Origin: Tubulanus polymorphus
Taxonomy: Eukaryota; Animalia; Nemertea
Assembly: GCF_964204645.1 (NCBI RefSeq)
Contig: NC_134033.1
Span: forward strand, 7,696,655-7,760,654
Length of the DNA: 64,000 nucleotides
Direction of reading: 5' to 3'
In this document: positions 15,640 through 49,270 of the stretch, one piece after another
Numbering within the stretch: the first letter of the stretch is position 1
How the letters are laid out: the number at the start of each line of letters is the position of its first letter
The notes under the pieces: model-generated
The model's database searches: none
What the model was told of the DNA's origin: nothing
What the model saw: only the letters and a program-made list of their open reading frames with translations
Program-made: the position numbers and the translations under genes

Positions 15640-18600
15640 AGTAATAGGGGTAATGGGCTTTCAGATCAAAGGTCGAACGGTCGAGCTCATTAAAAAACAA
15701 AACATTAAAAGTAATTTAAAACTATAATATATTTTCATAACCGTGTGCATTTTATATTATAACTAAATATTTATTCTAAGATATCAATAATTTAAAAAGC
15801 ATATTGATTTATTTACAATACACAAATTCATATAATCAAATGTATTCAAATAATAATTATTCTATTATTCAACTGAAATACACACGGTTATGAAAATATA
15901 TTATAGTTTTAAATTACTTTTAATATTTGTTTTTAATGAACTCGACCATTCAACCTTTAACCTGAAAGCCCATTACCCCTATTACTCTTAAAATGAATAA
16001 CATTTAAAAGTGTAAGCTCTTATAGAATAGATATATAGATATATTTACAACGTTATTTCAATATTCATATTTGTATGAGTTAGAATTTTGAACATTAAAA
16101 GTGTTAGTAAAGTGTGATTGAAATAATGCATGATATAAATCATTGAACTTCTAAAATCAATTTTAATAAAAAATTTTGTATTAAAATGGAAGCAAATAAG
16201 TACTACTGCCCAACATGTAATATCAATATAGATAAATCCCAAAAAGCAAGACACAATAAAACTAAAACACATTTAGAGAATAAATTAAAATTAGAATATA
16301 AAGATGATATATTAGAAACTAAATTGGATGAATTAAAGAATGAAAAAGAAACATACAAATGTGATACATGTAATCAATCATTCAGTGATAAAAGATATTA
16401 TAAAGAACATTTAAAATCTACAAGTCATATTAGAAATAAGAATAATGATATTTTAGGTGAAGATTATTTTGATAAAGATAATGATAAGAAACAGAAGACA
16501 ATTAAAAGCATAAGAAATAAATTAAACAATAAAAGACCATACATGGAAGATGTACGAAAATATATTAATTCATTAGATAATAAAAAAGATATAGAGATAA
16601 CCGAAGCATTTAAAAGTGATATTGGCCCAGCAGCTATCGAGTTTAAATTTCATAAAGGAAAAACGTTAGAAGAAAATAAAAAACATTTAGAAAATATGAA
16701 AGAAATAATAAAAATAATAACTGATGTTGAATACCCTAAAATTAGTATATCAGTTAAAGTAAAGTTTATAAAATCTGAAGATAAACCAATATATAATATA
16801 AATTCTCATTCACAACATATTATATATAAACAACATATAGATGATAAATTAGATAAATGTTATAATGAAGTAAAAACTAAAATAGAAGAGAAATATTTTG
16901 AAGGATCTGGTTTAATATTTGATGAAATAATATTTATGACTTTACATGTTTATAACACAAAATATAATAAGTTAACTAAATCAAAACCAATTGATGAAAA
17001 TAATGTATCATATTATAAAGAACCAGATATTGAAGCATCGAGTTATATCAAACTACCATTTAAAACTAATGCTGTAATAAATGTACAAAATGAAGATGAT
17101 AAATGTTTTCTATGGGTTATAATAAGTTGTTTACATCCTGCAACTTAAAATATTTGTAGATTAACTCATTATAAACCATTTGAAAATAATTATAAGATAG
17201 ATAAGTATCCTGTTATAATTAAAAACATCCCAAAAATAGAAAGAGATAATAATATAAAGATAAATGTGTTTGATTTAATCAAATTACCAAATACAAAAGG
17301 TAACAATATAAAACATTATACATTAGAACCTTTATACCTATCAAAAGATTATGATTCAAACAATGTTATAGATATACTATATTATGAGAATCATTATATG
17401 TGGATTAAACAAATCGATTTATTTTTTAAATCAGAAAGTGATCACCATAGAATATATCTTTGTAGAAAATGTTTACATAAATTCAGTAATGAAAGTACAT
17501 TATTAAATCATAAACAATTATGTGAAAATCATGATTATTGTAAATTAGTTTTACCAAATGAAAAAGATAAAATATTAGAATTCAAAAAATATGATTACAA
17601 AAATAAAGTACCATTTGTTATATATGGAGATTTTGAATCATTAAATAAAGAATTAACTGATCAAGATAGAAAAGAAATATATTATAAAAGAAAGAAATTT
17701 AATTCTAATGAAAATGATTTTTCAGATGAAACACCAAAAACAAATACAATTAAAAAGATTCATCAATCAGCTGCAGCTTTCGGGTTATATATTAAATCTG
17801 ATTATCCAGAACTAATTGAAAGTGAATATTATGATTATAGAAATGAAAATGTTATCAATCATTTTTGTGACTTATTAATTGAATATGAAATAAGATTTAG
17901 TAAATTATTGAATACAAATAAAGAAATAATTATGACAGAAGAAGATAAAGAAGAATTTGTGTTTTCAGATAAATGTTATTATTGTGAAAAGATATTTAAT
18001 TTTAAAGATAAAAAAGTAAGAGACCATGATCATTTGAATGGAAAGTTTAGAGGCGCTGCACATGAGAATTGTAACTTACAAGCTAAGAAAATTAATTTTG
18101 TACCAGTTATATTTCATAATCTATCAGGATATGATGCACATTTATTCATCAAACAGTTATGTCATAAAATAGAAGAAATTAATAATGAAATAGAAAGATT
18201 AAATTCAAATAGATCAAAAGATAAAATACCAACTTATAAATTTAAAATGTTAGCTAAAACATCTGAGAATTATATATCATTCCAATTTGGTTGCCTAGAA
18301 TTTATAGATTCCTATAGATTTTTAAATAGTTCATTAGATAACTTATCAAAATCATTAGTTGATGATGAATTAAAAATATTAAAGCAACATTACCCAAATA
18401 ATGATGATTTTCAATTAATGAGATATAAAGGAGCAATTCCATATTCTTTCTATAAAAATCATATTGATTTTAACATAACTGAATTATTGAAAGAACAATT
18501 CTATGATGAATTAAAAAATGAATATGTTAAAGATGAAGTCTATAATAGAACATTGAATATTTGGAATCATTTCAAAATAGAAAATCATGGGCAATTAGTA

Positions 18601-20135
18601 GATTCATATCTAAAATCAGATGTATTATTATTAACCGATATATTCGAAAGGTTTAGAGATGTAAACCTAAAATATTTCAATATTGATCCTTGTCATTGTT
18701 ATTCTAGCCCAGGTTTAACATGGGATTGTGGTTTAAAATTTACAGATATAAAAATGGATTTGTTAACAAATATAGATCAATTATTATTATTTGAAAAATC
18801 TATAAGAGGAGGAGTTTCAGGTGTATTAGGGGATAGATATTTCAATGTAAATGATAACCCTGGATATAAGTTATTATATATAGATGCAAATAATTTGTAT
18901 GGTTGGGCAATGATGGAACCACAACCTTATGGAGTATTTGAATTAACTGAAGTTTTACAGAATGAAAATAGTGATAAATTTGATTGGAAGAAAAGAATCC
19001 TAGATATTGCAGATGATTCAGATACTGGTTACTTCTTTGTTGTAGATTTAGAATATCCTGAAGATAAAAAATTTAAATCTAGAAATATAGCTTACTGTCC
19101 CGAACATAAAACTGTAACGCATGAAGAATTATCAAGTTATCAAATAAGAATTAAACCCGAAAATCATATTCATACAGAAAAGTTAATGGTAACTCGAAGA
19201 AGATAAATATAATTATGTAGTACATTATAGAATGTTAAAGTTTTATCTAAAATAAGGAATGGTTCTAAAAAAAGTACATAGATATATTTCATTCAGTCAA
19301 TCTAAGTGGTTAGAAAAATATATAGATTTTAACACCAAACAGAGAACTGAAGCTAAAACTGATTTCGAAAAAGATTTCTTCAAGTTAATGAATAATGCAT
19401 TCTATGGTAAGACTTGTGAAAATATTAGAAATAGAAATGATATTGAGTTAGTCAGTAATGGTAAAAGAATTAGACATTTACAATCATATCCTAAGTTCAT
19501 TGGTAACAGAATATTTGATGAAAATTTAGCTGCAGTTAAAATGAGAAGAACATCAATGAAATTTAATAAACCAATCTATGTTGGCGCTTCAGTTTTAGAA
19601 TTATCAAAATTACTAATGTATGAATTCTATTATAATGTATTACAACCTCATTTTGGAGAAAAGCATATAGAAATCTTATATTTTGATACTGACAGTTACA
19701 TATTAAAGATAAAAACTGATAACATAACTAATGATTTAAAAACATTAAAACATCATTTTGATTTTAGTAATTATCCTAAAGATCATGAATTGTTTAGCAA
19801 TGATAATAAAAAAAGTTCCCGGTAAATTCAAAGATGAATTAGGTGGTGAAGAAATGATAGAGTTCATAGGTATTAGATCTAAAATGTATTCATATAAAAC
19901 TAAAGAACATGAAGCTAAAAAGTTAAAAGGAATAACCAAAAGTGTAGTAGAAAAGAATATTCATTTCAAAGATTACATCAATTGTATATTCAATGAAGAA
20001 GTTAGAAAACATAAGATGAGATGTTTAAGATCTGAAGATCATGAAATATTTATTGAAGAAATTGAAAAGATAAGTCTAAACCCATTTGATGATAAAAGAT
20101 ATATTTTAGATGATGGAATTCATACAGTTGCTTAT
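15640..20135 (+). mobile_element. Truncated Polinton/Maverick (subfamily 1): terminus plus pPolB
   Basis: Starts AGTAATAGGGG, has a terminal fold-back (15640-15986), then a pPolB highly similar to 43425-47456; cut at 20135 by a MITE. Confidence 0.92.
16186..20135 (+). pseudogene. polB: Protein-primed family B DNA polymerase, disrupted
   Basis: Motifs YGDFES, FHNLSGYD, YIDANNLYGWAM, KLMNNAFYGK, YFDTDS; endonuclease-VII-like RDHDHLNGKFRGAAH. In-frame TAA at 17146, frameshifts near 19197 and 19810, a further stop near 19254. Confidence 0.93.
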
Positions 20136-21300
20136 CGGTGTTGTCATATCGCGGAAAGACGGAATCGCGGAATTTTCCAAAAACGCGGAATTTCTTCATT
20201 TTTACTTTAAATAGTAAACGGGTTTTTTCCCACGGGGATACCCACTGTCGGACAGGGCACCGGACCGATCGATGCAACGACTAAGGTTCGAATCCCATTA
20301 TTTGCAGGCAATTTTATATGGAATCATTATATTACGATACCGTTGACTGGCTGCCACCTGTAGAAGAAGTCAGAATCAAGTGAGGTGAAAGAGACCAGGC
20401 ACCTAATGTCTATTTCTACTAGGCAAACTTCGGCTATCGAAGTTCATCGACTTTTTGAGAACTTCAGAAACGAATATTATCAGATAAATATTGAGCACGT
20501 TCGCGGTGTCGGACTGTAGTTGTAGATGGTTGCAAACACGAAATCCTACGACCAAACAAGTACCGGTTCAAATTCCTATAAAATCATTATAATCATTGAA
20601 ATCATTATAATTTTACGGCCGTCCAGTACCGGTACGAATAAGATTCTTTTGATCCAAATAATCAGCATAGGAACATATATGTTATAGCAGTCACAAAGTA
20701 AACATTAAAAAAACGAAACCATTTTATAATCTTTCATATCATTTAATTCTAAAAGATAAACCACATTCTTCGCTTATAACAACAATGTAGACACACAACA
20801 CGCATGAACAATCCTAAACCAGAATGAAATATACATAATGTCTATTTATTTTCGTCTGACATCGATCCAGTTCCACAGTTGTGAGTTAACTCTGAGTCAC
20901 TTAGAATCAATTCATTTCCAATGTTTTAAATCCAGAGACCAGAGTCAAATCTTAACTCGGAAGTGAGTCCTTGAGAATGACCCATGGTGTCACAAATCCT
21001 ACGTTTACGTACCATCGATTTGTATTCATTCAGTTAATGCAGCGATACTCTGTATCACTGAATTCGCAAAGCACGTATTGCCTAGGTTCTCCATTATTTG
21101 GAAAAGTATCGTTAAGTTGTTGACTAGCGATATAATAAATTATCAAATACTAATTCCCAGTGTTGAAAAGCTGGGTCCGGTGCCGTCTGACAGTGGGTAT
21201 CCCCGTGGGAAAACCCGTTTACTATTTATAGTAAAAATGAAGAAATTCCGCGTTTTTTGAAAATTCCGCGATTCCGTCTTTCCGCGATATGACAACACCG
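20136..21300. mobile_element. Non-autonomous TIR DNA transposon (MITE-like), ~130-bp TIRs, no TSD
   Basis: CGGTGTTGTCATATCGCGGAAAGACGG... at 20136 is the reverse complement of ...CCGTCTTTCCGCGATATGACAACACCG ending 21300. Confidence 0.85.
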
Positions 21301-21313: not shown

Positions 21314-21878
21314 AGATCAAAGGTCGAACGGTCTAGCTCATTAAAAACAAAATATTAAAAGTAATTTAAAACTATAATATATTTTCATAACCGTGTGCAT
21401 TTTATATTATATCTAAATATTTAATCTAAGATATTAATAATTTAAATTTTAAAAGCATATTGTATTAAATCAATTGGTCGCTCCGCTTCGCTACCGCTCC
21501 ACTCCGCGACCAATTGATTTATTTACAATACACAAATTCATAATCAAATATATTTTAATAATAATAATTATTCTATTATTCAACTGAAATACACACGGTT
21601 ATGAAAATATATTATAGTTTTAAATTACTTTTAATATTTGTTTTTAATGAACTCGACCATTCAACCTTTAACCTGAAAGCCCATTACCCCTATTACTCTT
21701 AAAATAATCATATACATGAATAACATTTAAATTGATAGATTATTCAATATAAAAGTGTGAGCTCTTATAGAATAGATATATAGATATATTTACAACATTA
21801 TTTCAATATTCATATTTGTATGAGTTAGATTTTTAAAAACATTAAAAGTGTTAGTAAAGTGTGATTGAAATAATGCAT
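21314..21878 (+). mobile_element. Polinton subfamily-1 terminal fragment
   Basis: Direct homolog of ~15663-16130; lacks the outer ~23 bp but keeps a central GC-rich stem-loop absent from the 15640 copy. Confidence 0.85.
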
Positions 21879-29179: not shown

Positions 29180-29823
29180 TGGTTTTGTCGCCCGCGACAA
29201 TTCATTAGTTTGGTTTTATCGCCCACGACAATTCATTACTTTGGTTTTATCTCCAGCGACAATTCATTATTTTGGTTTTGTCGCCCGCCACAATTCTTCT
29301 TTTTGGTTTTGACGCCCGCGACAATTCAATATTTTGGTTTTGTCCCCCGCGACAATTCATTATTGTGGTTTTGTCGCCCGAGACATTTTCATTATTTTGG
29401 TTTTATCGTCCGCGACAATTCATTATTTTGGTTTTGTCGCACGTGACAATTCAATATTTTGTTTTTGTCGCCCGTGACAATTCATTATTTTGGTTTTATC
29501 GCCCGCGACAATTCATTAGTTTGGTTTTGTCGCCCGCGACAATTCAATATTTTGGTTTTATCACCCGCGACAATTCATTAGTTTGGTTTTGTCGCCCGCG
29601 ACAATTCTTTTTCAGTCCACTTGGGACTTTAGTCTCAGTGGGCTATTGCGTTCACTTTTCGTCCGTCCGTCCGTCCATAGACGGAATCCAGTTATTTTGG
29701 GAAGTTTTGAATACGCTTCAAGGTAATGTCTTGATATCAGGTTTATACATGTATCTACCCTAGACACATCGTCAGCCCAAAAACTGGCCCTGTCAGATTC
29801 AAGATGGCCGTCTGGCAGCCATT

Positions 29824-30205
29824 AGTAATAGGGATAATAGGCTTTCATACCAAAGGTCGAAGGGTCGAGCTCGTAAAAAATGAAAATAACAATAATTTAC
29901 AGTTGAATTAGTCGCGCACACTCCTAATTCAACTGTAAATTATTATTATTTTCATTTTTTACTCACTCGCCCCTTCAACCTTTGATACGAAAGCCTATTA
30001 TCCCTATTACTCTTAAAATATTCACATAAATGAATAACATTTAAATCATTGAACTTCTAAAATCAATTTTAATAAAAAATATAGTATTAAAATGGAAGCA
30101 AATAAGTACTACTGCCCAACATGTAATATCGATATAGATAAATCCCAAAAAGCAAGACACAATAAAACTAGAACACATTTAGAGAATAAATTGAAACTAG
30201 AATAT
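29824..30205 (+). repeat. Left TIR (outer 188 bp is a fold-back palindrome)
   Basis: Reverse complement of 47343-47725 with 4 substitutions and one 1-bp indel by eye. Confidence 0.95.
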
Positions 30206-30343
30206 TTACAGTTATATTCAGAACAGTTAACAAAGGGAAAGAAATTTATTGAATTATGGAATAATGATCCAAATAATGAACAATACGTTGAGGAATTTAT
30301 TATCAAGGAATCGAAAGAACTTATCAAAAGCAGCGAGGAATGA
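30092..30343 (+). CDS. Chimeric 83-aa ORF: pPolB N-terminal zinc finger fused to an HNH-protein-like tail
   Basis: First 38 codons lie inside the TIR and match the pPolB start; the remainder resembles the C-terminus of 30423-31088. Confidence 0.6.
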   Translation: MEANKYYCPTCNIDIDKSQKARHNKTRTHLENKLKLEYLQLYSEQLTKGKKFIELWNNDPNNEQYVEEFIIKESKELIKSSEE

Positions 30344-30422
30344 AAAAGGATGACGTTGGTCGAAGAAATGGAAGAGGATTCTAAAATTATTAACCAATTT
30401 AGTAAAAAAATACGTATAATAA

Positions 30423-31088
30423 ATGGAACCAGAACAACCACAAACTATCAATATTACAAATAACACTGGCGTTATAAACATATATTACAAGAAGTGTTCT
30501 AAATGTGAATTAGATAAATCATTAACAGAATTTAGTAAGCGTAAGATTAGCAAAGATGGTTTTCAATATTGTTGTAAAACTTGTACTAAACTATATACCA
30601 AACAATATCGAGAAGATCATAGAGAATCTTATAATGATTATATGACAGAATACATGAGAGAAAGATATCAAACAGATCTTAATTTTAGATTGAAACAATG
30701 CTTAAGGACTAGATTAACACAATTATTCAACAAAGAAACACATTCAGAAACACTATCTAATCTATTGGGTTGTTCAGATGAATTTCTCAAATCATGGATA
30801 ATATATCAATTCGACGATAAAATGAATATAGATAATTATGGAGAATACTTTCATATTGATCATGTGTTGCCGATTTCTAAATTTGACATGAATGATGAAT
30901 ACAATAAAAAACTTATTTGGAATTGGAAGAATCTAAGACCTTTAGAAAAGAAGGAAAACATTATTAAATCCAATAAACTAGATTTACAGTTATATTTAGA
31001 TCAACTGGATAAAACAAAGACATTTGTTGAATTATGGAATAGTATTTCACAGAATCAACCGCATTCTGAGGTTTTGATCAGTGGTTAG
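30423..31088 (+). CDS. HNH endonuclease with N-terminal CxxC...CxxC zinc finger
   Basis: CSKC...CKTC, then LLGCS...NYGEYFHIDHVLPISKF...WKNLRPLEKKENIIKSNK. Confidence 0.8.
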   Translation: MEPEQPQTINITNNTGVINIYYKKCSKCELDKSLTEFSKRKISKDGFQYCCKTCTKLYTKQYREDHRESYNDYMTEYMRERYQTDLNFRLKQCLRTRLTQLFNKETHSETLSNLLGCSDEFLKSWIIYQFDDKMNIDNYGEYFHIDHVLPISKFDMNDEYNKKLIWNWKNLRPLEKKENIIKSNKLDLQLYLDQLDKTKTFVELWNSISQNQPHSEVLISG

Positions 31089-31436
31089 AAAGCTGGCAAT
31101 TCTATTTGAGCTTTGTATGTATATAATACATAGCTTTTGCTTACTACTAAAACATATGTTGCCAAATATATCTTGTTTTCAATTCTAAAGAATTAATTAA
31201 CTTCATCATAAAGAACATCTGTGCAGAAGTAATTAGTTTGGTCGAACGTGCGCCACGTCGGCAGTTAGAAATCAACTTTCACATACATAGTACGTATTGG
31301 ATATTCTCTCTCAAAACACAGTTTACAGTTCTAAATCTAAATGTAAGTACTGTTTTTTGTAGTTATTATGAAGTAGGGAAACCTTTAAACATATTTAAGT
31401 ACAGTAATTCATTTTCACGATATCTTTTAGATTAAA

Positions 31437-32165
31437 ATGGAACACAAAGATCAACCAGAAATTCTAAGCCAACCAACGGATGAGGAACGATTGCTTCTGG
31501 ATAGTGAAACTCAGGAATCAATAGAAATGGAGGATGAAACTCTCGTAATTGACGAACAAACTTCCCAAACATTACAAGAACATTTGGACTATCATCAAGA
31601 AATGGTGAAAATTCTGAGTGATGTAATACATAATAAACAATTACCGCGCGAACTACAATTACCAAAATTACCAGCAACGCGACTCAAATTGCTGTTGGGG
31701 CTCAAAGAATCGAAAACTAAGAAAATGAGTGGAGAAGAGTTGAACGAGTTTTTAAAATCTAAATTAATCATTAACACAGAACATTTAAACTTTCCGGAAA
31801 TACAAAGTGTAGAAGTTATTTCATTTGCTGAAATTACTGATATCTTAAAAAAAAGTTATAAAACCATATTAAATAGAAAAGCAAATCACGTATGGGACCA
31901 CATCATATTCGGGGGTTATCTAAATATAAGGTTTTCAATGTTTGATAAAGAAACTGAGGGGATTTCTTGGGGACTGTGGGTTAAAAAGAACATAGATATC
32001 AGTGCTGGTTTTGAAAGAAAACTGAGAAGAGTAGGTAGATTAATAAAATATGAAAAATTCAAAATATTAGGATTAGCATTTAGTGAAGTAGTAAGACATT
32101 TACCAGAAATTGAAGAAATGATTGGAAACAATCCAGTAATTAAAGAATTCTGGACAAAATTATAA
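31437..32165 (+). CDS. Hypothetical protein, 242 aa (possible 5'UTR intron upstream)
   Basis: Intact ORF with acidic N-terminus and a helical C-terminal domain; function not recognised. Confidence 0.7.
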   Translation: MEHKDQPEILSQPTDEERLLLDSETQESIEMEDETLVIDEQTSQTLQEHLDYHQEMVKILSDVIHNKQLPRELQLPKLPATRLKLLLGLKESKTKKMSGEELNEFLKSKLIINTEHLNFPEIQSVEVISFAEITDILKKSYKTILNRKANHVWDHIIFGGYLNIRFSMFDKETEGISWGLWVKKNIDISAGFERKLRRVGRLIKYEKFKILGLAFSEVVRHLPEIEEMIGNNPVIKEFWTKL

Positions 32166-32229
32166 ATTATAATACTGAAGGTCTTAGATATCAAAAATGT
32201 AATCTCGATTGTATATATCTGTTTTAATA

Positions 32230-32586
32230 TTGTATTGTTTACTGTTAACTGTGTATTGCGTAATAACCGGTCCGATTGAACCGCTTTTCTATTGTTCTCC
32301 ATTGTTCTACTATTGATCGTTGTTAATGGCGGCGGTTGTTCTGTATTGATTGTTTACTGTTAACTAAGTGTTTTGTAATAACCGGTCCGATTGGACCGCA
32401 TTTCTATTGTTCTCCATTGTTCTACTATTGATCGTTGTTGACTGAAACAGCTGCTCAATATTGATTGGTTACAGTTCTATGTTTGAATGTTGTAGTTTAC
32501 AGAATAAAAATATAACTGTGTATTGCATAATAACCGGTCCGATTGGACCGCATTTCTATTGTTCTCCATTGTTCTATTATCGATCG
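32230..32586. repeat. Three imperfect repeats with CGGTCC-GATT-GGACCG palindrome
   Basis: TAATAACCGGTCCGATTG(G/A)ACCGC.TTTCTATTGTTCTCCATTGTTCTA at ~32261, 32377 and 32528. Confidence 0.85.
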
Positions 32587-32970
32587 CTAAAATTTACATA
32601 ATGAATATATGTGTTTATGAAATAGAATTCCACCAGTCGTTTCTTTGAGTTTATTTTCAGTTGAGGATTTGATATCGAGGATCCGAAATGACTTATCTGG
32701 ACAGTTATAATTACTGCTCCTAATAGATAGACAATAGTAGTGAGATATCAAATAGAATTTAAATAAAATATAATAAAAAAACAATAACTTCAACTATCTA
32801 TTATTTCTATTATATTTTTAATATTTTCTTTTCAAAAGAGAATACTTTATATCACAAATAAAAAATACTTAAAAAACAATAACTAATACTAGAATTCTTT
32901 AACTTCAACTAGCTAGTATCATTTGAAGAATACTTATAATATTTTTTTTTGCTTTTTTCCTCTAATATAA

Positions 32971-33573
32971 ATGTCAAAGAAATCTAATAAGAATAGTATT
33001 GATATTGAAAAAACATTAGATGATTTGGGTATAAGTGATAATAAAGATACAGTTGTAACTAATTCTATTCAAGTTAATAACAATATAGATTATGAATACT
33101 ACTTATATTGTAAGCATCATCTAGAACTATTGATTGCCGGTGGAAAAACTAATGAGTTTTTAACTAAGACTATTACTTTTCAAGAATTAGATGCTATGAA
33201 ACCCGATAAAGTAATAAAATATTTTAAGATTTATGAAGAGGCAAGATTAGCTAGAATAAATGATTCTATTTCAGATGGTATTGTCAAATGTTATTCTAAG
33301 TTATGTAACCAGTTAATACCAATTGATGATGAAAATAAATTATATAATGATTTGAAAAATGACTATTTAGTTATGACTGAATTACAAAAATGGGTTGGAT
33401 ACGCTTCATTTCAATTAGGATCGGTTATGACATTGATTTCTACTGGAGTTATAACATTTTCGAATATCAAACCTATGGAATATAAATCAGGTAAGAACGA
33501 AACAGATGTACTACAACCAAACGTCGAAACAGAAAATGAATCAGAACAAAAATTAACTAAAATAAATGAGTGA
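32971..33573 (+). CDS. Polinton hypothetical protein, 200 aa
   Basis: Intact ORF with TAAATG start and a hydrophobic segment near the C-terminus. Confidence 0.75.
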   Translation: MSKKSNKNSIDIEKTLDDLGISDNKDTVVTNSIQVNNNIDYEYYLYCKHHLELLIAGGKTNEFLTKTITFQELDAMKPDKVIKYFKIYEEARLARINDSISDGIVKCYSKLCNQLIPIDDENKLYNDLKNDYLVMTELQKWVGYASFQLGSVMTLISTGVITFSNIKPMEYKSGKNETDVLQPNVETENESEQKLTKINE

Positions 33574-33961
33574 TGGAGTTAAGAAAAAGGCTAGATCCGA
33601 GAAACAAATTAAATGGGCAAGAGAATTAGGTAAAAGATCATCAGAATTAAAAAAAGCTAAGAAAAAGAAATTAACTGATATAAATGAATCACAGAAATTA
33701 TCTGATGGTGCCGTACAGCACCCACACGGTGGTATTGATTCAAATAATAATCCATCTGATTCTTCTAATAGTGGAAGAAATAATTACTTATATATTACAA
33801 TTGGGTTAATCACAATTATTATATTCTCCGGTGTAATATATAAATCAAAATTCAAATCTGATGATAAAGATGATTCCAATGATGATAAACCTATCATACC
33901 CGAAAATAAGTCAAATCATAAATCAAATGAAAATAAATCTAAAATATTATTAATGGATTAA
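33566..33961 (+). CDS. Basic single-TM protein, 131 aa
   Basis: Lys-rich N-terminal helix; TM YLYITIGLITIIIFSGVIY. Confidence 0.7.
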   Translation: MSDGVKKKARSEKQIKWARELGKRSSELKKAKKKKLTDINESQKLSDGAVQHPHGGIDSNNNPSDSSNSGRNNYLYITIGLITIIIFSGVIYKSKFKSDDKDDSNDDKPIIPENKSNHKSNENKSKILLMD

Positions 33962-33964
33962 AAT

Positions 33965-35053
33965 ATGATGAAAAAAGAACAATATTTAAGAGATTTATAT
34001 TATAACCCAGAAAGTGAAGTTTCATATTCAAGTGTTTCGGAATTATGGGATAAAATTAAATCTGATAATAGCAATATAAAATATAGTGAATTAAAATCAT
34101 GGTTACAAAATCAACCCACATATCAAATTCATAAAAAGATGGATTAAAAATATTTAACAAGAAAAGTAATGGTTTCATATATCGATCAACAATGGCAAGC
34201 AGATTTAATTGACATGAAGAACTTAGAAGAATATAACAAAGGATATTTTTGGATACTAAATGTTATAGATATATTCAGTAGATACGCATGGAGTATCCCG
34301 ATTAAAAATAAAACTGGTATAGAAGTAACAAATGCTTTCAAATTAATATTTAAAGAAGCTATCCCAGATAAAATACAATTTGATGAAGGTAAAGAATTTT
34401 ATAACAAACATTTTAAAAAACTATTAACTGATAACGATGTAGAATATTTTTCAACACATTCAGATAAAAAAGCATCTGTTATAGAAAGATTTAATAAAAC
34501 ATTGAAAACTAGAATGTGGAAATATTTCACCGCTAATGAAACATATAAATATATCGATGTGTTAGATGATTTAGTTAAAGGTTATAATAATTCTAAACAT
34601 AGTTCTATAAATATGAAACCTATACAAGCTAGAAAAGAAGAAAATTCAGAAATAGTTTGGAATAATTTATATGGAGCATTTGTTACACATGATTTCGGTG
34701 AACCTAAATTTAAAATAGGACAACACGTTAGAATTTCTAAATATCGAAAAACATTTTATAAAGGTTATACCCCTAATTTTACAGAAGAAATATTCAAGAT
34801 TAAAAAGATAATATTAACTAAACCATTTGTTTATAAATTGTTTGATTTAAAAGATGAAGAAATATTAGGTTATTTCTATGAACAAGAATTATCATTAGTA
34901 CCAAATCCAGATGAAATAGAATACAAAATAGAAAAAGTATTGAAAACAAAAACTCTTAAAGGAAAAAAGTATTCTTTGGTGAAATATAAAGGATATGATG
35001 ATAAATTTAATGAATGGATTTCATCTAGTAAAATTAAAAGAATAAATGAATAA
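33965..35053 (+). pseudogene. int: Retroviral-like (rve) integrase with C-terminal chromodomain; one in-frame stop
   Basis: WQADLID / FDEGKEF / IERFNKTLK DDE motifs; YKIEKVL...VKYKGY...EWI chromodomain. ORFs 33965 and 34169 are in frame across TAA 34145-34147. Confidence 0.93.
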
Positions 35054-35657
35054 AGATTTATTTATATTTGAACCACATAATATATTAGTTACTGGAGTTA
35101 CAAATTGTGGTAAAACACATTTCATATTAGACTTGTTAGAAACTATTTATAAAAATCATTTTGATAATATAATATTATTCTGTCCTACATATGAAATGAA
35201 TAAAACATATAATAGAGATATAGTTAAGATAAAAAAGTTTATTATATTAGATCCTAAAACAGTAAAAGAAAATTTAGATAATTGTATAAAAATTGCATTA
35301 GATATTTATAAAGGATCAAATACATTATTCATTATAGATGATTGCGCAAATTTACATGATTCTAAAATTAGAGAAAGTGAGTTATGATATTTAGCTTTCT
35401 CTGGTAGACATTTTGGGATAACAACTTGGGTTTTAAATCAAAAATATAATTCAATTGTGAAAGATTTTAGAGAGAATATAAGATTTCTAGTTTTATTCTA
35501 CAACAAAGATAGAAAATCTATGCAACAATCATTAGAAGAAAATCAAATTATACCTACTGAATTACATGATGAATATATGAATAAATTAAAAAATAATAAA
35601 GGTTCAAAATTATTACTGAGATTACAATTTCCTTATGAATATAAATTTATAAAATAA
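35046..35657 (+). pseudogene. A32/FtsK-like DNA packaging ATPase; one in-frame stop
   Basis: Walker A GVTNCGKT, Walker B FIIDD; TGA at 35385, then YLAFSGRHFGITTWVLNQKY...REN in the same frame. Confidence 0.9.
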
Positions 35658-35679
35658 CTATTTGTATACCTATGTATTA

Positions 35680-35758
35680 GATACCCTAATACCTGATACC
35701 CTAATACCTGATACCCTAATACCTGATACCCTAATACCTGATACCCTATTAGATACCT
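35680..35758. repeat. 15-bp tandem repeat between convergent gene blocks
   Basis: (GATACCCTAATACCT)x4 plus partial units. Confidence 0.9.
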
Positions 35759-35831
35759 TAAATAATTTAAACCCCCTTTTTTATTTACTATTATTTTATA
35801 CAATTTTCAACCTTTATTATTCGAGTTTTAG

Positions 35832-36788
35832 TTAATCAATTTCTGAATCACTTTCACTATAAGACGCTAACAATTTATTTAAATGCTCTACCGAATCTTC
35901 TTCAATATCTTTATAATTTTTTTTCACCTTTTTCACCTTTTTCACCTTTTTTACCTTTTTCATATTTTTTACTAAATCATCAATAGTTGTTTTATTGTTA
36001 AGTTTATTGATCCAATCAAATTTATCATTATTTTCTACTTTAAGTTTTATAGAATCTTTATTATCAATATGTTTAACTGTAACTATATCATCATGTGGGT
36101 GTATAACACCATTTTCATTATCATCTTTATTAGTGTTTGATCCTAATATTTCATTTACAGTGTTTGATCCTAATATTTCATTAGCATCGGTTAAATCTAA
36201 TTCATCTTTATTAGGTGTTGCTAATAATAAATCTTCATATATTTTTTCACCATTTACTTTTTTATTTGAAACAAATTTTGTAACATATCTAAATGGGTGT
36301 TCTATAAATTCTTTTTTACCAACACGTTCTATAACATTAGTAATATGTGAATTTGTATTCATATGTTTATTCCAATTTGATGGAGCGTTTGAAAATTCAC
36401 CATTACAATAATCACAATAATTTCTATTTTCACTAACATTTAATATTATTGCATTATTATATGTAGAAGGTATTATATTATTTGATGTAGAGGGTATTAC
36501 AGATGTAGAAGGTATTATGTTATTAGATGTAGAAGGTATTACATTATTAGATGTAGAAGGTATTACGTTATTAGATGTAGAAGGTATTACATTATTATCA
36601 ATTACATTACTTAAATTATCAACAACTTCACTTTTATTATTATCGATTTCTATTAGTTTAGTTTTATAATTTTTAAAAATAGGATCAAATATCGAAGCTA
36701 TATTACAAGGTATTACATAATATAAACCATCATTATTTTCATGTGTATCGATGTATGGAATATGTTTATATACTTTACCTCCTTCCAT
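35832..36788 (-). CDS. Hypothetical 318-aa protein with C2H2-like finger and NNVIPSTS repeats
   Basis: CDYC...HMNTNSH; about six 8-aa repeats; (KKV)n tract. Confidence 0.75.
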   Translation of the reverse strand: MEGGKVYKHIPYIDTHENNDGLYYVIPCNIASIFDPIFKNYKTKLIEIDNNKSEVVDNLSNVIDNNVIPSTSNNVIPSTSNNVIPSTSNNIIPSTSVIPSTSNNIIPSTYNNAIILNVSENRNYCDYCNGEFSNAPSNWNKHMNTNSHITNVIERVGKKEFIEHPFRYVTKFVSNKKVNGEKIYEDLLLATPNKDELDLTDANEILGSNTVNEILGSNTNKDDNENGVIHPHDDIVTVKHIDNKDSIKLKVENNDKFDWINKLNNKTTIDDLVKNMKKVKKVKKVKKVKKNYKDIEEDSVEHLNKLLASYSESDSEID

Positions 36789-36820
36789 TTATTATATATA
36801 TTTTTATTAAAGTTAAAATT

Positions 36821-38068
36821 TTAGTACATAACACTATCTAATTGTGAATTTACAATATTTATTTGCGCATCAGATATAATATAAATATGCATTTTAAAAT
36901 TTTTAATTCCTTTTTTCTTTGTCATGAATAATTGTATTCCATCTTTTGTATTTTGTAATTTTTTCCCAGAACCATGTAATGAATTATCTTCAGTTGTTCT
37001 AAAATCTAACCATAATGCATATTTATTACCGGTATAATAATCAATTTGATTAATGTTACAATTTTCAAATGATTTTACTTTTTCATTCATAAAATGTTTT
37101 TTAATTTCTACCCATTGATCAATCATTCTCATTCCTTGACAAAATATTTTATTTGCTATTCCTTCGATAGTTATTTCTACTTTTGTTATTTCAGGATTAT
37201 AATAATTGTCAACATTTATTGCGCCATTAGTATACGTTCCAATAGTAAAAAATATTAATATACCTTTAATAGATCTTCTAGGGAAGTTAATATTCTCATT
37301 TATTATTTCATCATTTGCATTAATAGTTACAGTTTTAAATTTATCAATATAATCATATAATAATGAAAATCCTTGATTGTATTGAGTTTGAATTATACTT
37401 GAAATATTTTCATCAGTTACTGTATCATATTCTAAACATATATTCGATAATTTATAACTCATATCTTTATTAACGCTAGATAATACAATTTCATTTACAG
37501 GAGCAAATGTTATCTCGAATATAATATCTTCTTGAATTGCGTATTTATATAAAGGTGCATTATTATTTATCAATTCAAAGTCTAATGGAATTTTATATTT
37601 GCTTCCATATATACTTTTTATCAATTTATCTACATCATTTGTTAATATTGCGCTATTAGCTTCTGATCTAAATTTATTTTGGTTTTCTGATTGGATTCCT
37701 TGAAATATCATATTATTTCTATTTTCTTTAGTTAACCATAAATCTTTATAATGCATAAATAAATTATAATCATCTAATGAGAAAACTGTTTCTGGTCCAA
37801 TCTTTATTGTTAACTTTTTAATCAAATATCTTCCAACATTATCAACGACATAATTATTATTATTACCGATTACTTTTATATCAGCTGATAAATAAATACT
37901 GTTTGGAACGTAAAAAGTATTTTGTGTTAATCGAGGGATTCTAACGTATAAAGTTTCATCGGGATTAATATTTGAAGGGTTATGAGTAATTATATGATGT
38001 GATCTTTCTGCTTTAATAGCATTAGATATTCTATGATTCTTAGAAGGATTGATATAACTCCCACTCAT
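36821..38068 (-). CDS. Major capsid protein (double jelly-roll), intact
   Basis: 415 aa, beta-rich; NPSNINPDETLYVRIP, YKIPLDF, LEYDTV, RRSIKGIL and ALWLDFRT resemble Polinton MCPs; size and context fit. Confidence 0.8.
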   Translation of the reverse strand: MSGSYINPSKNHRISNAIKAERSHHIITHNPSNINPDETLYVRIPRLTQNTFYVPNSIYLSADIKVIGNNNNYVVDNVGRYLIKKLTIKIGPETVFSLDDYNLFMHYKDLWLTKENRNNMIFQGIQSENQNKFRSEANSAILTNDVDKLIKSIYGSKYKIPLDFELINNNAPLYKYAIQEDIIFEITFAPVNEIVLSSVNKDMSYKLSNICLEYDTVTDENISSIIQTQYNQGFSLLYDYIDKFKTVTINANDEIINENINFPRRSIKGILIFFTIGTYTNGAINVDNYYNPEITKVEITIEGIANKIFCQGMRMIDQWVEIKKHFMNEKVKSFENCNINQIDYYTGNKYALWLDFRTTEDNSLHGSGKKLQNTKDGIQLFMTKKKGIKNFKMHIYIISDAQINIVNSQLDSVMY

Positions 38069-38109
38069 TTATTTAACAAAAAAATTAATTATTTATTTTT
38101 AATCATGGT

Positions 38110-39589
38110 TTACTTGATATTTTTTGATATCATATTCACTAACCCAAAAATAATAGCACTTACAACTGTAATTAAAAATAAAATAATATGTTCAGCAGCA
38201 AAGTTAATAATGTTTCCTGCAGATTTCAATATAAAACCAACAATTGAAGCAATAACTCCTGGTAAAGCTGCAGCAGATTTTTTAGATAGTTCCCATAAAT
38301 ATTTTGCTAATTTCTTTAAACCATCAACTTTAACTTTATCTTGTATAGAATTATTACCTGGAGGTTTATCTGGTTTATCCGGTTTATTGGGAGTAGGAGT
38401 AGATTTCAAAGCATTTGAAATAGCTAAACCAATTGTTGTAAATACCATAGTTACAGCTGTTAGAATTGAAAGAATTGTTATTCCTTCTAATTTAAATAAT
38501 AACTTTATTCTATCTTTTAATGATATTTCAGAATTTGGTTTAATCAACAAATCTTTAAAAATAACTTTTAATCTATTTATATTATAATCATATGATTTTA
38601 ATAATAATTTAATTTCTTCTTTTTGTAATTCTATGTTATATTCTAAATCATCAATTTCTTTTTCTAAATATGCATTTCTTTTTTTAAATTCAATTTCTTC
38701 AATAACTTTATTATCTCTATCTAATTTTAATTGTTCTATTTCTTTTCTTGATTTTAATAATTCATCTTCTAAAGTTCTAATTTTTAAATCTCTTATACTT
38801 TTATCATGCGCAATTTTATCAGATGCAAGTCTTATACTAATAATTTCTTTAATTGCTTTATCAGAAAATATATTTAAATCTTCTAATTCTTGTTTTGTTG
38901 CATCAATTAATCCATTCGGTAAAAGTTTTTCAATTGGAATTTTATTTGATTTAAGTTTACTAGTTTTGGAAGTTTTATTCTGTTCAGAACTTGTTTCTGG
39001 TTCTAAATTATTATCGATTGTTTCAAATAATTCATTAATTCTTTGTTTAAATACTCTTTCATTTTTAATAATTTCTTCTTGTGTTACATCTTCTATTTCA
39101 TTACTATTTCTTATTCTTTTAATTCTAGATAGTAATGAGTCAGACTTAAGCAAAGTTGATTCTGCTAATATTTTGTTTTGTTTTTTTATAAGAGATATCA
39201 ATATAATAATCATCTTTCAAATGATAATAATATTCACCATCTAAAGATTTTAATTCTTGTACTAAAAGTCTGGCGCCTCTAGCATTGATATTATATCCAG
39301 ATTTTTCAAATATAGGTTTGAAATTATAAATATATTCATTATATTCTAAATTTTGTTTTACTAAATCTGGATTTTCATTTTCAGGATTTATTCTCGATCT
39401 AGTTCTTCTATCAAATTCATCTGTTGATTGACCTTTAGAACCACTATCTGCTAAATTAGAATTATATGCTGATTCATCATCATTATCAATATTAGTTTCA
39501 TTAAAATCGGGTTGTGGTTCATCATCAATATATCCTTCATTATTATTTCCCATTTCTCCCATTTCATAATCTTCTACACCTTCTGCCAT
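38110..39589 (-). pseudogene. Coiled-coil plus membrane protein, probably one gene frameshifted in an A-run near 39184
   Basis: Removing one A joins ...DISYKK to QNKILAESTL...; only the 39589 start has TAAATG; several C-terminal hydrophobic helices. Confidence 0.7.
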
Positions 39590-39606
39590 TTACATAATAA
39601 AAAAAA

Positions 39607-40778: not shown

Positions 40779-40795
40779 TTATATAATTAAAAAAA

Positions 40796-41230: not shown

Positions 41231-41249
41231 TTATTTAGAATAAAAATTA

Positions 41250-41672: not shown

Positions 41673-41697
41673 TTATTTAACAAAAAAAATTATACAT

Positions 41698-41919
41698 TTA
41701 TATGGGAGGAATATATTTTTGTTTTTCCAAATAATCAATAGTTAAATTAGATAAAGTAACTGCTAATGTTAACTTTAAAATATCATTTATATCAAATCTA
41801 TCAACATTAACACTTCCCATTTTGAATACTTTTTTTAATACCATTGAATAACCAACAGTTCCAACTGATAGTAATGCGCCATTATATAATCCAGTTATTA
41901 TCCACTTATTATCACTCAT
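41698..41919 (-). CDS. Small hydrophobic protein, 73 aa
   Basis: Intact, TAAATG start, tightly packed in the virion block. Confidence 0.7.
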   Translation of the reverse strand: MSDNKWIITGLYNGALLSVGTVGYSMVLKKVFKMGSVNVDRFDINDILKLTLAVTLSNLTIDYLEKQKYIPPI

Positions 41920-42261: not shown

Positions 42262-42278
42262 TTATATAGTGAAAAAAA

Positions 42279-43037: not shown

Positions 43038-43054
43038 TTATTTTACATATTTTC

Positions 43055-43424: not shown

Positions 43425-46400
43425 TTAACACGTTAGAATCCTTTTCATAATCTCATTTTCTTTTGTTTCTTCTCTTTTGAATTTTATATATTCATCTAAA
43501 TTGCAACCATAGGCGACTGTGTGGATTCCATCATCTAAAATATATCATTTATCATCAAATGGGTTTAGACTTATCTTCTCTATCTCTTCAATATACATTT
43601 CATGATCTTCAGATCTTAAACATTTCATTTTATGTTTTCTAACTTCTTCATTAAATATACAATTGATGTAATCTTTGAAATGAATATTCTTTTCTACTAC
43701 ACTTTTAGTTATTCCTTTTAACTTTTTAGCTTCATGTTCTTTAGTTTTATATGAATACATTTTAGATCTAATACCTATGAACTCTATCATTTCTTCACCA
43801 CCTAATTCATCCTTAAACTTCCCAGGAACTTTTTTATTATCATTGCTAAACAATTCATGATTTTTTGGATAGTTACTAAAATCAAAATGATGATTTAATA
43901 TTTTTAAATCATCAGTTATGTTATCAGTTTTTATCTTTAATATATAACTGTCAGTATCAAAATATAATATTTCAATGTGTTTTTCCCCAAAATGGGGTTG
44001 CAATACATTATAATAGAATTCATACATCAATAGCTTTGAAATTTCTAAAACTGCAGCTCCAACATAAATAGGTTTATTGAACTTCATAGAAGTTCTTTTT
44101 AATTTAACTGCAGCTAAATTTTCATCGAATATTCTATTACCTATGAATTTCGGATACGATTGTAAATGCCTTATCCTTTTACCATTACTAACTAACTCAA
44201 TATCATTTCTATTTCTTATGTTTTCACAAGTCTTACCATAGAACGCATTGTTCATTAGTTTAAAGTAATCCTTCTCAAAATCAGTTTTAGCTTCAGTTCT
44301 CTGTGTAGTATTAAAATCTATATATTTTTCTAACCACTTAGATTGATTAAATGAAATATATCTATGTACTTTTTTTAATATCATTCCTTGATTCAAATAG
44401 AATTTTAACATTCTATAATGTACTACATAATTATATTTATCTTCTTGAGTTACCATTAACTTTTCAGTATGAATATGATTATCGGGTTTAATTCTTTTTT
44501 GATAATTTGATAATTCTTCATGTTTAACAATTTTATGTTCGGGACAATATGCTAGATTTCTAGATTTAAATTTAATATTTTCAGGGTATTCTAAATCTAC
44601 AACAAAGAAGTAACCAATATCTGAATCATCTGCAATATCTAGGATTCTTTTCTTCCAATCAAATTTATCAATTTGTAAAACTTCAGTTATTTCAAACATC
44701 CCATAAGGTTGTGGTTCCATCATTGCCCAACCATAAAGATTATTTGCATCTATGTATAATAATTTATATCCAGGATTATCATTTACATTGAAATATCTAT
44801 CACCCAATACACCTGAAACACCTCCTCTTATAGATTTTTCAAATAATAGTAATTGATCTATATTTGTTAACAAATCCATTTTTATATTTGTAAATTTTAA
44901 TCCACAATCCCATGTTAATCCTGGTGATGAATAACAATGACAAAGATCAATGTTAAAATATTTTAGGTTTACATCTCTAAACCTTTCGAATATATCAGTT
45001 AATAATAATACATCTGATTTTAAATATAAATCTACTAATTGCCCATGATTTTCTATTTTGAAATGATTCCAAATATTCAATGTTCTATTATATACTTCAT
45101 CTTTAACATATTCATTTTTTAATTCATCATAGAATTGTTCTTTTAATAATTCAGTTATTTTAAAATCATTATGATTTTTATAGAAAGAATATGGAATTGC
45201 ACCTTTATATCTCATTAATTTAAAATCATCATAATTTGGGTAATATTCTTCTAATATCTTTAATTCATCATCAATTAATGATTTTGATAAGTTATCTAAT
45301 GAACTATTTAAAAATCTATATGAATCTATAAATCTTAAACAACCAAATTGAAATGATATATAATTCTCAGATGTTTTAGCTAACATTCTAAATTTATAAG
45401 TTGGTATTTTATCTTTTGATTAATTTGAATTTAATATTTCTATTTCATTATTAATTTCTTCTATTTTATGACACAGTTGTTTAATGAATAAATGCGCGTC
45501 ATACCCCGATAAATTGTGAAATATAATGGGGACAAAATTTACTTTTTTAGCTTGCAAATTACAATTCTCATGTGCAGCGCCTCTAAATTTACCATTCAAA
45601 TGATCATGGTCTCTTACTTTTTTATCTTTATAATTAAATATCTTTTCACAATAATAACATTTATCTGCAAACGCAAATACTTCTTTATCTTCTTCTGTCA
45701 TTATAATTTCTATATTTCTATTCAATAATTTACTAAATCTTATTTCATATTCAATTAATAAGTCACAAAAATGATTAATAACATTTTCATTTCTATACTG
45801 ATAATATTCACTTTCAATTAGTTCTGGATAATCAGATTTAATATATAACCCGAAAGCAGCAGCTGATTGATGAATCTTTTTAATAGTATTTGTTTTTGGT
45901 GGTTCTTCTGAATAATCACTTTCATTAGAATTTAATTTCTTTCTTTTATAATATATATCTTTTCTATCTTTATCTGTTAATTCTTTATTTAATGATTCAA
46001 AATCTCCATATATTACAAATGGTATTTTATTTTTGTAATCATATTTTTTGAATTCTAATATTTTATCCTTTTCATTTGGTAAAACTAATTTACAATAATC
46101 ATGATTATCACATAGTTGTTTATGATTTAATAATGTACTTTCATTACTAAATTTATGTAAACATTTTCTACATAGATATATTTTATTATGGTGATCACTT
46201 TCTGTTCTAAAAAATAAATCTATTTGTTTAATCCACATATAATGATTCTCATAATATAGTATATCTATAACATCATTTGAATCATAATCTTTTGATAGAT
46301 ATAAAGGTTCTAATGTATAATGTTTAATATTATTTCCTTTTGTATTTGGTAATTTAATTAAATCAAATACATTTATTTTAAGATTATTATCTCTTTCTAT

Positions 46401-47456
46401 TTTTGGAATATTTTTAATTCTAACAGGATACTTATCTATCTTATAATTATTTTCAAATTGTTTATAATGAGTTAATCTAAAACTATGTGTAATATCTTCT
46501 GTTGGATGTAAACAACTTATTATAGCCCATATAAAACATTTATTATCAAAATTTTGTATATTTATTACACCATTAGTTTTAAATGGTAGTTTAATATAAC
46601 TTGTTCCATTTATACTATCATCTTTATAATATGATAAATTATTTTCATCAATTGGTTTTGATTTTGTTAACTTATTATATTTTGTGTTATAAACATGTAA
46701 AGTTATAAATATTATCTCATCAAATATTAAACCAGATCCTTCAAAATATTTCTCTTCTATTTTAGTTTTTACTTCATTATAACATTTATTTAATTTATCA
46801 TCTATATGTTGTTTAGATATAATATGTTGTGAATGAGAATTTATATTATATATTGGTTTATCTTCAGATTTTATAAATTTAACTTTAACTGATATACTAA
46901 TTTTTGGATATTCTACGTTTGTAATTATTTTTATTATTTCTTTCATATTTTCTAAATGTTTTTTATTTTCTTCTATTGTTTTTCCTTTATGAAATTTAAA
47001 CTCGATAGCTGCTGGACCAATATCACTTTTAAATGCTTCGGTTATCTCTATATCTTTTTTATTATCTAATGAATTAATATAATTTCTTACATCTTCCATG
47101 TATGGTCTTTTATTGTTTAATTTATTTTTTATTCTTTTAATTGTCTTCTGTTTCTTATCGTTATCATTATCAAAATAATCTTCACCTAAAATATCATTAT
47201 TCTTATTTCTAATATGACTTATAGATTTTAAATGTTCTTTATAATATCTTTTATCACTGAATGATTGATTACATGTATCACATTTGTATGTTTCTTTTTC
47301 ATTCTTTAATTCTTCTAATTTAGTTTCTAATATATCATCCTTATATTCTAGTTTCAATTTATTCTCTAAATGTGTTATAGTTTTATTGTGTCTTGCTTTT
47401 TGGGATTTATCTATATCTATATTACATGTTGGGCAGTAGTACTTATTTGCTTCCAT
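43425..47456 (-). pseudogene. polB: Protein-primed family B DNA polymerase (1343 codons) with two in-frame stops
   Basis: All exo/pol motifs present. TAA at 45420-45422 and TGA at 43545-43547 replace Arg codons of the 16186 copy; the frame continues to TAA at 43425. Confidence 0.95.
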
Positions 47457-47725
47457 TTTAATACTATATTTTTTATTAAAATTGATTTTAGAAGTTCAAT
47501 GATTTAAATGTTATTCATTTATGTGAATATTTTAAGAGTAATAGGGATAATAGGCTTTCGTATCAAAGGTTGAAGGGTCGAGTGAGTAAAAAATGAAAAT
47601 AATAATAATTTACAGTTGAATTAGGAGTGTGCGCGACTAATTCAACTGTAAATTATTGTTATTTTCATTTTTTTACGAGCTCGACCCTTCGACCTTTGGT
47701 ATGAAAGCCTGTTATCCCTATTACT
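47343..47725 (-). repeat. Right TIR (47537-47725 fold-back palindrome)
   Basis: Inverted copy of 29824-30205. Confidence 0.95.
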
Positions 47726-49270
47726 GCCATTGTTGTTTGCCAAAATCAGCACTTTTTAAACATTTTCGAAGTTTTCGTGGGAAATTTTGAAGACGCTTTG
47801 ATCAATTACCCTGATCTTTCGTTTATATTTGAATCTGCCAAAGGCCCATCAGCATAAGAAAATTGGGTCGATCTGACTCAAGATGGCCGTCCTATGACCT
47901 TTTTAGTGCCCAAAAATGTCAATTTTGGCCAGAATTCTAGGTCCTGTAGCTTCCTACTGGTTTGCCATTTTCATTGCAATTGCTGATAGGTATTCTTTAG
48001 AGAGGGGTGTTTAATACCTGGGACAGGTATTTTTGATCAGCCAATTATGACGCAATTGGCGGCCATCTTGGTGTCATCAGTACTCATTCGTAGGTGGGAA
48101 AAAGTTTTTCCACATTAAATTTATACCTAAGCATATTGTGTTACTATATTCAATTGGAAAGTTGTAGCCCATAACGTGTTCTATGATTGTGGCGAGTTTC
48201 AAGGTCATTGGTTTTTGTATGTGGCCATCAGGGGGCATTGAATAATTCAACAACTTAGTATTGCTATATTATATTTGTACCAAGGCATATTTTGATACCA
48301 TGATCGCTTGCAAAGTTGTAGTTCATGACATCGTCTACGATTGTGGTGAGTTTTTAAGGACATTAGTTATTCCATATAGTCACCAGGGGGCGTTGAATAG
48401 TAGAATGACTTAGTATTTCCTTATTAGATTGGTACCTAGGCATATTTTGTTACTATGATCAATTGCAAAGTTGTATTTCATGACATGTACTACGATTGTG
48501 GTGAGTTTTAAGGTCATTGGGTTTTGCATATGGTCACTAGGGGGCGTTGAATAGTAGAATAACTTAGTATTTCCATATTAAATTGGTAACGAGGCATATT
48601 TTGTTATCACAATCAATTACAAAATCATAGCTGCTCACATGTTCTATGATTGTGGTGGGTTTCAAGGTCATTGGTTTTTGTATATGGTCACTAGAGGGCG
48701 TTATGTATTGAAATTGTTAGATTGTTGAGCATTTGAAACCACTGCCCAAGTGAGCATGGTGTCCCTGGACCCCTAGTTTGGTTTTGTCGCCCGCGACAAT
48801 TCATTATTTTGGTTTTGTCGCACGCAACAATTCAATATTTTGTTTTTGTCACCCGCGACAATTCATAATTTTGGTATTGTCACCCGTGGTTTTGTCGGAA
48901 CATTAAGGTTTTTGGTCAAACAGCGTGTTAAGGTCGTTTTGGAAATTTACTCGGTCTGGTATATTTTGGATTACTGTGTATGTCATTTGTCAGGACATTA
49001 AACAGAAGACGACTTAGGATACTACCTTGCGTGACTCCACCAGTTAGACCGTCTCATTCCAAGATGAGGCGTCCCGTTGATTTCGGTTACAAGTTTCCGT
49101 TCAGAGATAACTCCTGAGCCATTTGGGCGACCTATCATTGATACTGTTTCCTAATAGCCTGTTTAGTAATGGCTGATGTTGAGCCTCATCAAATGCTTTG
49201 TTGAAATCCACCGTTGAACAGGATTCTAAGACTGTGCAGAAAACCCGTTATCGCTGCTTTGCAGCTATAT

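Follow-up and report, generated by a model that had tools for sequence, protein, structure and literature searches.

The ends of E1, a Polinton in the 64,000-nt stretch of Tubulanus polymorphus DNA analysed here (the window), fold back on themselves, and judged from its sequence the E1 terminus is a real, selected and strand-specific structure of an ordinary Polinton, for whose mechanism we offer a proposal. At the left end an 88-nt outer arm (29824..29911), the first 23 bp of which are perfectly paired with the inner arm, is followed by a 12-nt loop (29912..29923, reverse strand) and by an 88-nt inner arm that, on comparison of the arms, is an inverted copy of the terminus (29924..30011); the right-end fold-back (47537-47725) has the form 89+12+88, with one additional A. 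A re-check of the sequence agrees with these coordinates, which are those of the first-pass annotation, and the base of the hairpin is the exact element-host junction. We know of no demonstration so far of how Polintons exit the host chromosome or start to replicate, and the standing model of their replication is a TIR panhandle. A one-strand fold, kept in one orientation over many insertions and with arms rebuilt in sister subfamilies, provides sequence evidence for a single-stranded DNA intermediate, and the 188-nt end is a defined substrate for simple biochemistry.

E1 (29824-47725) is AT-rich and 17,902 bp long, with a TIR at each end; these are 382 bp at the left (29824..30205) and 383 bp at the right (47343..47725, holding the mirrored fold-back), and are 98.7% identical. 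The element is flanked by matching 6-bp TSDs, GCCATT, at 29818..29823 and 47726..47731 (forward strand), and a copy of the host repeat without the insertion lies at 10442-10794; because the overlap in this empty copy is 6 bases, again GCCATT (10570-10575), the boundaries of E1 are fixed. The target is a very high-copy host repeat, which the window also shows at 6388-6556, 47726-47950 and 62675-62861. Size, TIRs and TSD all lie within the ranges applied here to Polintons (13-25 kb, TIRs of 100-1500 bp and TSDs of 5-8 bp), and its genes, for a pPolB, an A32-like ATPase, an RVE integrase bearing a chromodomain and, likely, a capsid protein, make E1 a Polinton. The left TIR also takes in the start of the polymerase reading frame (its first 113 nt), giving rise to a short left-end ORF (30093-30343; compare 47343-47456) with the first zinc finger of the polymerase.

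This copy of E1 is decayed, with one in-frame stop in the polymerase and one in the ATPase. The pPolB gene (reverse strand) is thus read in two parts, an N-terminal one that ends at the stop (45420..47456) and a C-terminal one (43545..45419) with a match to PF03175 (E 1.6e-14) and 3376 long homologues. The integrase (34169..35053, forward) matches PF00665 at E 2.3e-9, and the packaging ATPase (35046..35657, forward, with its stop at 35385-35387) matches PF04665 above the cut-off. The likely major capsid protein (36821..38068, reverse, 415 aa) has no direct Pfam match; it has 955 homologues, and PF16903 is found on one of the 120 listed. Neither a maturation protease nor a nickase of the Rep/HUH/NS1 family gave a Pfam match in the 18 of 21 E1 ORFs (of at least 100 aa) that were scanned. 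Among the remaining features are a 221-aa ORF adjoining the left TIR (30423-31088), a candidate second nuclease with a weak HNH match (E 0.18); a 144-aa ORF (40796-41230) for a two-helix membrane protein with a weak, SLATT-like match under the cut-off; and, in a part of E1 without coding sequence where neither strand folds strongly (32228-32586), three direct repeats of ~75-120 nt that have diverged from one another.

The N-terminal part of pPolB contains zinc fingers, a predicted TP domain, an OTU-like protease and an exonuclease with an HNH/EndoVII-like insert. In the 678-aa part that was modelled (mean pLDDT 76.5), residues 136-256 form a sheet and two-helix domain; its Ser241 sits in the loop that links helix 2 to the last strand, strand 4, and is present in 33 of 34 alignment rows. 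Polinton terminal proteins have such a topology and Ser position in the parts consulted of their description (10.1101/2024.03.18.585575), and we designate residues 136-256 a predicted terminal-protein domain, on topology alone. The OTU-like domain has a structural match with a middling Z of 7.6 (rmsd 3.7, 106 residues aligned), and keeps its Cys307 and His405 in 33/34 rows. Inserted in the exonuclease is a beta-beta-alpha-metal domain that matches PF02945, with its Cys, His617 and Asn633 likewise in 33/34 rows; its best structural match is Hpy99I, again at a middling Z (6.3, rmsd 2.0, 56 aligned), and T4 endonuclease VII is not among the best 50 structural matches listed. A Foldseek search with the 678-aa model returned nothing at E<=0.001. 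Since the key residues are kept in 33 of the 34 rows, protein priming looks retained. HNH and VSR insertions are known in Polinton polymerases, and are given no role at the ends in the parts consulted of 10.1101/2023.08.22.554363.

Folding as DNA gives -80.5 kcal/mol for the 3′-terminal strand versus -69.1 for the opposite strand, and no shuffle among 200 was as stable as either strand's fold. Read on the 3′-terminal strand, the mismatches common to both E1 ends are G·T at arm positions 24, 27, 35, 47 and 67, together with a tandem G·A/A·G at positions 48-49. Four shared isolated mismatches had been described as G·T on this strand, and all four (24, 27, 35 and 67) are; however, in population reads the wobble at 24 is found in only ~19%, with an A-T pair in 81%, and position 67 is polymorphic, so that individual wobbles are unfixed, which counts against a neat wobble picture. 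What had been called a 3-nt bubble is present, but is actually a T·G plus a tandem 5′-GA/3′-AG on the same strand. This tandem has the pyrimidine-GA-purine context that, according to the parts consulted of PMC10085684, gives sheared G·A pairs in DNA. At both loop ends the 3′-terminal strand has GA, a predicted tandem G·A closure where the fold shows a 2x2 internal loop.

Two mismatches are private to one end: a G·A at position 42 of the left end, retained in up to ~80% of reads, and a transition at position 15 of the right end (E1R), G·T on the 3′-terminal strand, which probably arose after insertion. The outer arm also contains two GGTCGA hexamers (29852-29872), the first of which is altered in the inner arm by the wobble at 35, in E1 and in the related ends E2 and E3 alike; judged by its sequence, GGTCGA is a possible protein-binding site that would tell the outer arm from the inner.

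The window contains two related ends that the first-pass annotation had overlooked and that by sequence belong to a sister subfamily of E1. E2 is the terminus of a related truncated Polinton (15640..15986, with arms of ~110 bp, a 125-nt loop and a 2-nt bulge), followed by a broken and truncated polymerase region (16133..20135, forward strand) with 92.5% identity to E1; E3 is a terminus fragment without the outer ~23 nt (21314..21697), in which 113 nt of the inner arm are identical to E2. Between the truncated E2 polymerase and E3 lies a 1.16-kb insertion (20136-21299) whose terminal inverted repeats are 131 bp long and which is probably a non-autonomous DNA transposon. The E2 and E3 fold-backs have arms of ~110 bp, loops of at least 125 nt and the same polarity as E1, and orientation is alike in all four ends within the window. 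The terminal 23 nt of E1 and E2 agree at 21 positions, and beyond approximately position 58 the E2/E3 arms are unrelated to those of E1 (16/37 identities over positions 52-88). Within the first 51 pairs, five differ between E1R and E2 by changes on both sides, and the wobbles at 35 and 47 persist.

The strand bias recurs in these arms. All seven isolated mismatches of E2 are G·T on the 3′-terminal strand, as are 10 of 10 distinct transition mismatches of E1 and E2 (binomial p=0.002, calculated by hand), a count from which position 15 was left out as private to the right end and which becomes 11/11 (p=0.001) with it; the three transversion mismatches are all purine·purine on that strand. The E3 loop carries an extra hairpin (21469..21517, reverse strand) with three overlapping GCG-N(1-2)-AGC mini-hairpin motifs on the 3′-terminal strand and none on the opposite strand, a number reached in 9 of 200000 core shuffles in what was a post hoc comparison. 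Such mini-hairpins are reported, in the parts consulted of PMC13037366, to be far less stable as RNA than as DNA and to be found at ssDNA origins. The claim that the fold is tuned to the 3′-terminal strand, made for E1, is thus seen again in further ends of the window and in reads.

Population reads over the left end came from 12% of a 2026 short-read run on total DNA from a different sample with the same species label; they are unphased, and cross-mapping between the arms is possible. Position 29824 is linked to unrelated flanks in 1576 reads, a read count uncalibrated for copy number, and the E1 terminus is therefore present at many insertions. Variant shares in the outer and inner arms agree at position 11 (0.42/0.51), and also at 16, 25, 76, 77 and 79, and the two arms change together. 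Among the best 40 of 61 variant rows, inner-arm variants at positions 59 (26%) and 70 (19%) would give A·C on the favoured strand unless the outer arm compensates in the remaining 21 rows. The loose-end and joint rows, read by eye, suggest an abundant E2-like subfamily and a shorter-armed one, with a CGAG/CGAG block closing the loop on the 3′-terminal strand. Joints between opposite strands, with 10-18 reads each, are sited where subfamilies diverge, and we rejected them as evidence of snap-back molecules.

Flipping should show up as variants at both members of pair 35 and as random flanks behind 30011. The former are absent from the best 40 of the 61 variant rows (smallest share ~14%) and the latter from the best 6 of the 172 loose-end rows, the smallest of which has 401 reads, and the orientation thus reads as fixed. 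A fixed orientation without flip-flop had been claimed for the two E1 ends, which alone say little; it is borne out by the four ends in the window and by the read rows.

We prefer, tentatively and as a proposition slightly short of evenly balanced, a reading from the sequence in which the released 3′ strand would fold into a local duplex origin for TP-pPolB protein priming. Its starting points are observed, namely the geometry of the fold, the bias to one strand, the fixed orientation, the arms that change together and the motifs of the polymerase; the steps beyond this anatomy are inferred. Strand displacement, or release from the host, would free the 3′-terminal strand, whose 3′ end could snap flush onto the inner copy; the fold would make the terminal 23-25 bp resemble the end of a normal genome, with no need for an 18-kb panhandle, and the terminal protein of the polymerase would prime a new strand on it. 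Protein-primed synthesis would then open the hairpin and copy it unchanged, so that no inversion would arise, and the retained mismatches at 35 and 47 would make the palindrome imperfect and may keep the inner copy from serving as an origin or as an end for integration. Several observations count against this reading: individual wobbles are unfixed, the inner-arm variants at 59 and 70 would be A·C unless compensated, the skew at fourfold sites of the pPolB 5′ frame leaves room for strand-biased mutation, the distant pPolB relatives L004 and L005, which have apparent termini, are without a terminal fold-back, making it unnecessary for this polymerase class and lineage-specific, and the 382-bp TIR panhandle already supplies a duplex origin, so that the hairpin looks redundant. 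Of the uses first suggested for the fold, the duplex origin fits best, whereas simple self-priming with hairpin transfer conflicts with the read rows listed, which show no flipped ends.

Self-priming in a modified form is unlikely. The hairpin would prime from its own 3′-OH, and the closed end or dimer junction would be resolved asymmetrically, likely by the HNH/EndoVII-like domain of pPolB, keeping one orientation. The flush 3′ end could serve directly as a primer, the conserved Cys, His617 and Asn633 and the PF02945 match of the inserted nuclease fit such a role, and the wholly different distal arms of the subfamilies suggest occasional fold-back copying. In the parts consulted of the respective sources, such priming is proposed for protist elements (bioRxiv 10.64898/2026.07.28.741278), the dimer junction of minute virus of mice (MVM), whose left end likewise keeps one orientation, resolves asymmetrically and the LuIII left end is flip-only (PMC1185569). 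Symmetric transfer, however, predicts about half of the ends to be flipped, and none is seen in the read rows listed; no Rep/HUH family member was found in the 18 of 21 ORFs scanned, the TP and OTU motifs are retained, the literature takes Polinton nuclease insertions as homing-type, and Hpy99I, the best structural match of the domain (Z 6.3), is a restriction enzyme.

The same nuclease figures in a reading based on excision, to which we give little credence: the palindrome would extrude as a cruciform right at the host junction and be cut by the EndoVII-like domain of the polymerase, the cut would leave the element with a 3′-strand hairpin stabilised by G·T and G·A, and TP priming would reopen it without inversion. 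If true, replication would combine the protein-primed and the hairpin mode in one hybrid, and the exit of integrase-inserted Polintons would have an explanation.

It is quite doubtful that the fold is instead an end cap or recognition signal that shields the 3′ end, marks the limit for excision where element and host meet, or is bound in packaging. The position of the hairpin base exactly at the element-host junction speaks for it, as do, in the parts consulted of the sources, vaccinia hairpin mismatches that matter in maturation and not in replication (PMC8956199) and the nuclease resistance of mini-hairpins (PMC13037366). A cap would leave unexplained why an origin-like terminal sequence, rather than any stem, is duplicated and conserved, and a linear duplex genome bearing TP exposes no 3′ single strand.

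An outward-transcribed hairpin RNA, its stem held by G·U and G·A pairs, is an alternative raised by the first-pass annotation, but is very unlikely to be what selection acts on. RNA accommodates both G·U and tandem G·A as ordinary pairs, and RNA parameters favour the same strand by 26-38 kcal/mol in all four ends; what disfavours it are the DNA-type mini-hairpin motifs of E3. In addition, transcripts could be cut short, those of Pol II by AATAAA in the E2 and E3 loops and those of Pol III by T runs within the 3′ arms of 3/3 ends checked, both weak points in AT-rich DNA, and the seven Rfam matches are all sub-threshold and of a generic long-stem kind. Given selection on a one-strand structure, we hold with considerable confidence that the selected molecule is DNA rather than RNA.

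Selection on a one-strand structure is itself very probable. A host control inverted repeat, I7, is unbiased (three transitions in one direction and four in the other), and we discounted CpG decay as a source of the bias, since in duplex DNA it affects both strands equally and the majority of the sites are non-CpG. The reverse possibility, that occasional fold-back copying duplicates ends and strand-biased deamination leaves G·T as a neutral by-product, has little to commend it: C>T and A>G changes confined to one strand yield precisely G·T, fourfold sites in the pPolB 5′ frame are skewed (A73:T36), so that mutation close to the right end may be strand-biased to some extent, and accidental annealing is named as an alternative in the parts consulted of bioRxiv 10.64898/2026.07.28.741278, but mutation bias makes neither G·A pairs nor mini-hairpin clusters, the wobbles at 35 and 47 persist amid neighbours changed on both sides, the keto share over the fourfold sites of all ORFs (18 frames) is 0.48, read variants in a 1.3-kb stretch including host flank show strand symmetry (C>T 53, G>A 46, A>G 30, T>C 31), and the 3′-terminal part of the displaced strand would be single-stranded for the shortest time.

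The exact terminal pattern had no match in viral contigs or in metagenome contigs, and single-protein locus searches returned no locus from viral contigs or metagenomes, whereas alignment searches gave at least 7 and at least 13 related loci. No flush terminal fold-back was found among the ten loci checked for inverted repeats (L001-L007, L009, L011 and L012; L008 and L010 show the loci of L004 and L005 over a shorter span, and L013-L018, which align over the nuclease stretch only, were left out). Only L004 and L005, distant relatives from IMG/VR, have apparent termini, AGTAGT, and these are without a confirming partner TIR. In L003, another distant IMG/VR relative, a branched 184-nt fold-back (4657-4840) separates divergent genes and is located 143 nt upstream of pPolB; with ACTACT and AGTAGT in its outer stem it resembles a joint of two ends, and it has no clear strand bias. 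A sigma-70 scan was set aside as meaningless for a eukaryote.

Among known systems, the Polinton/adenovirus model of Kapitonov and Jurka (2006) reportedly has a TIR panhandle with protein priming by pPolB at a duplex end. E1 shares the TIRs and the pPolB and, in our proposal, the protein-primed duplex end; the panhandle pairs the two ends, whereas in our proposal the duplex would be local to each 3′ end, instead or additionally. The following comparisons draw on the parts consulted of each source. In Streptomyces telomeres, as in the duplex-origin proposal, the 5′ end is protein-capped and the 3′ strand folds with sheared G·A and templates protein-primed synthesis; they differ in starting replication from an internal origin, in having their ends patched by Tap/Tpg and in carrying several short palindromes, where E1 has one long stem and its own pPolB (PMC4513846). 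The left end of MVM/LuIII, like that of E1, is a 3′-terminal hairpin with a mismatched bubble and a single orientation, although these are ssDNA viruses with an NS1 nickase and a rolling hairpin, whereas in E1 a Rep-type gene was not found among the 18 of 21 ORFs scanned and the hairpins of both ends are equal (PMC1185569). Poxvirus telomeres are also imperfect terminal hairpins, with functional mismatches, but are covalently closed and occur as flip and flop, whereas the E1 end is fixed in orientation and the element RVE-integrated (PMC8956199). The flip/flop of rolling hairpins of the AAV/poxvirus type is thus not a feature of E1, all four window ends being alike and the read rows listed being without a flipped signal.

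A close structural parallel is in Halocafeteria seosinensis, where endogenous virophages (subtypes 1, 2, 5 and 6) and PLV subtype 4 have terminal palindromes for which a hairpin-priming model is given (bioRxiv 10.64898/2026.07.28.741278, in the parts consulted). The fold-back had first been taken as unknown as a standard Polinton feature, and this holds for the strand-biased form, for which no report in print was found at Polinton ends in a literature search whose scope stopped short of Repbase and subscription papers; it does not hold for terminal palindromes as such, given this 2026 preprint, whose supplements may list palindromes in pPolB subtypes. In those elements as in E1, the palindrome lies within the TIR, flush with the TSD of an RVE-integrated element, and a role of the hairpin in replication is proposed there. 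E1 has this palindrome within the TIR and next to the TSD; it departs from the association with non-pPolB genes, as it encodes a pPolB. The Halocafeteria example is 52 nt long and accompanies mostly non-pPolB replication genes, whereas the Polinton ends in the window are of 188-350 nt, with pPolB and TP motifs, and are imperfect, strand-biased and fixed in orientation, properties not described for the Halocafeteria palindromes in the parts of the preprint consulted. Terminal palindromes, earlier found mainly in protist elements without pPolB, are now extended to an element that encodes it.
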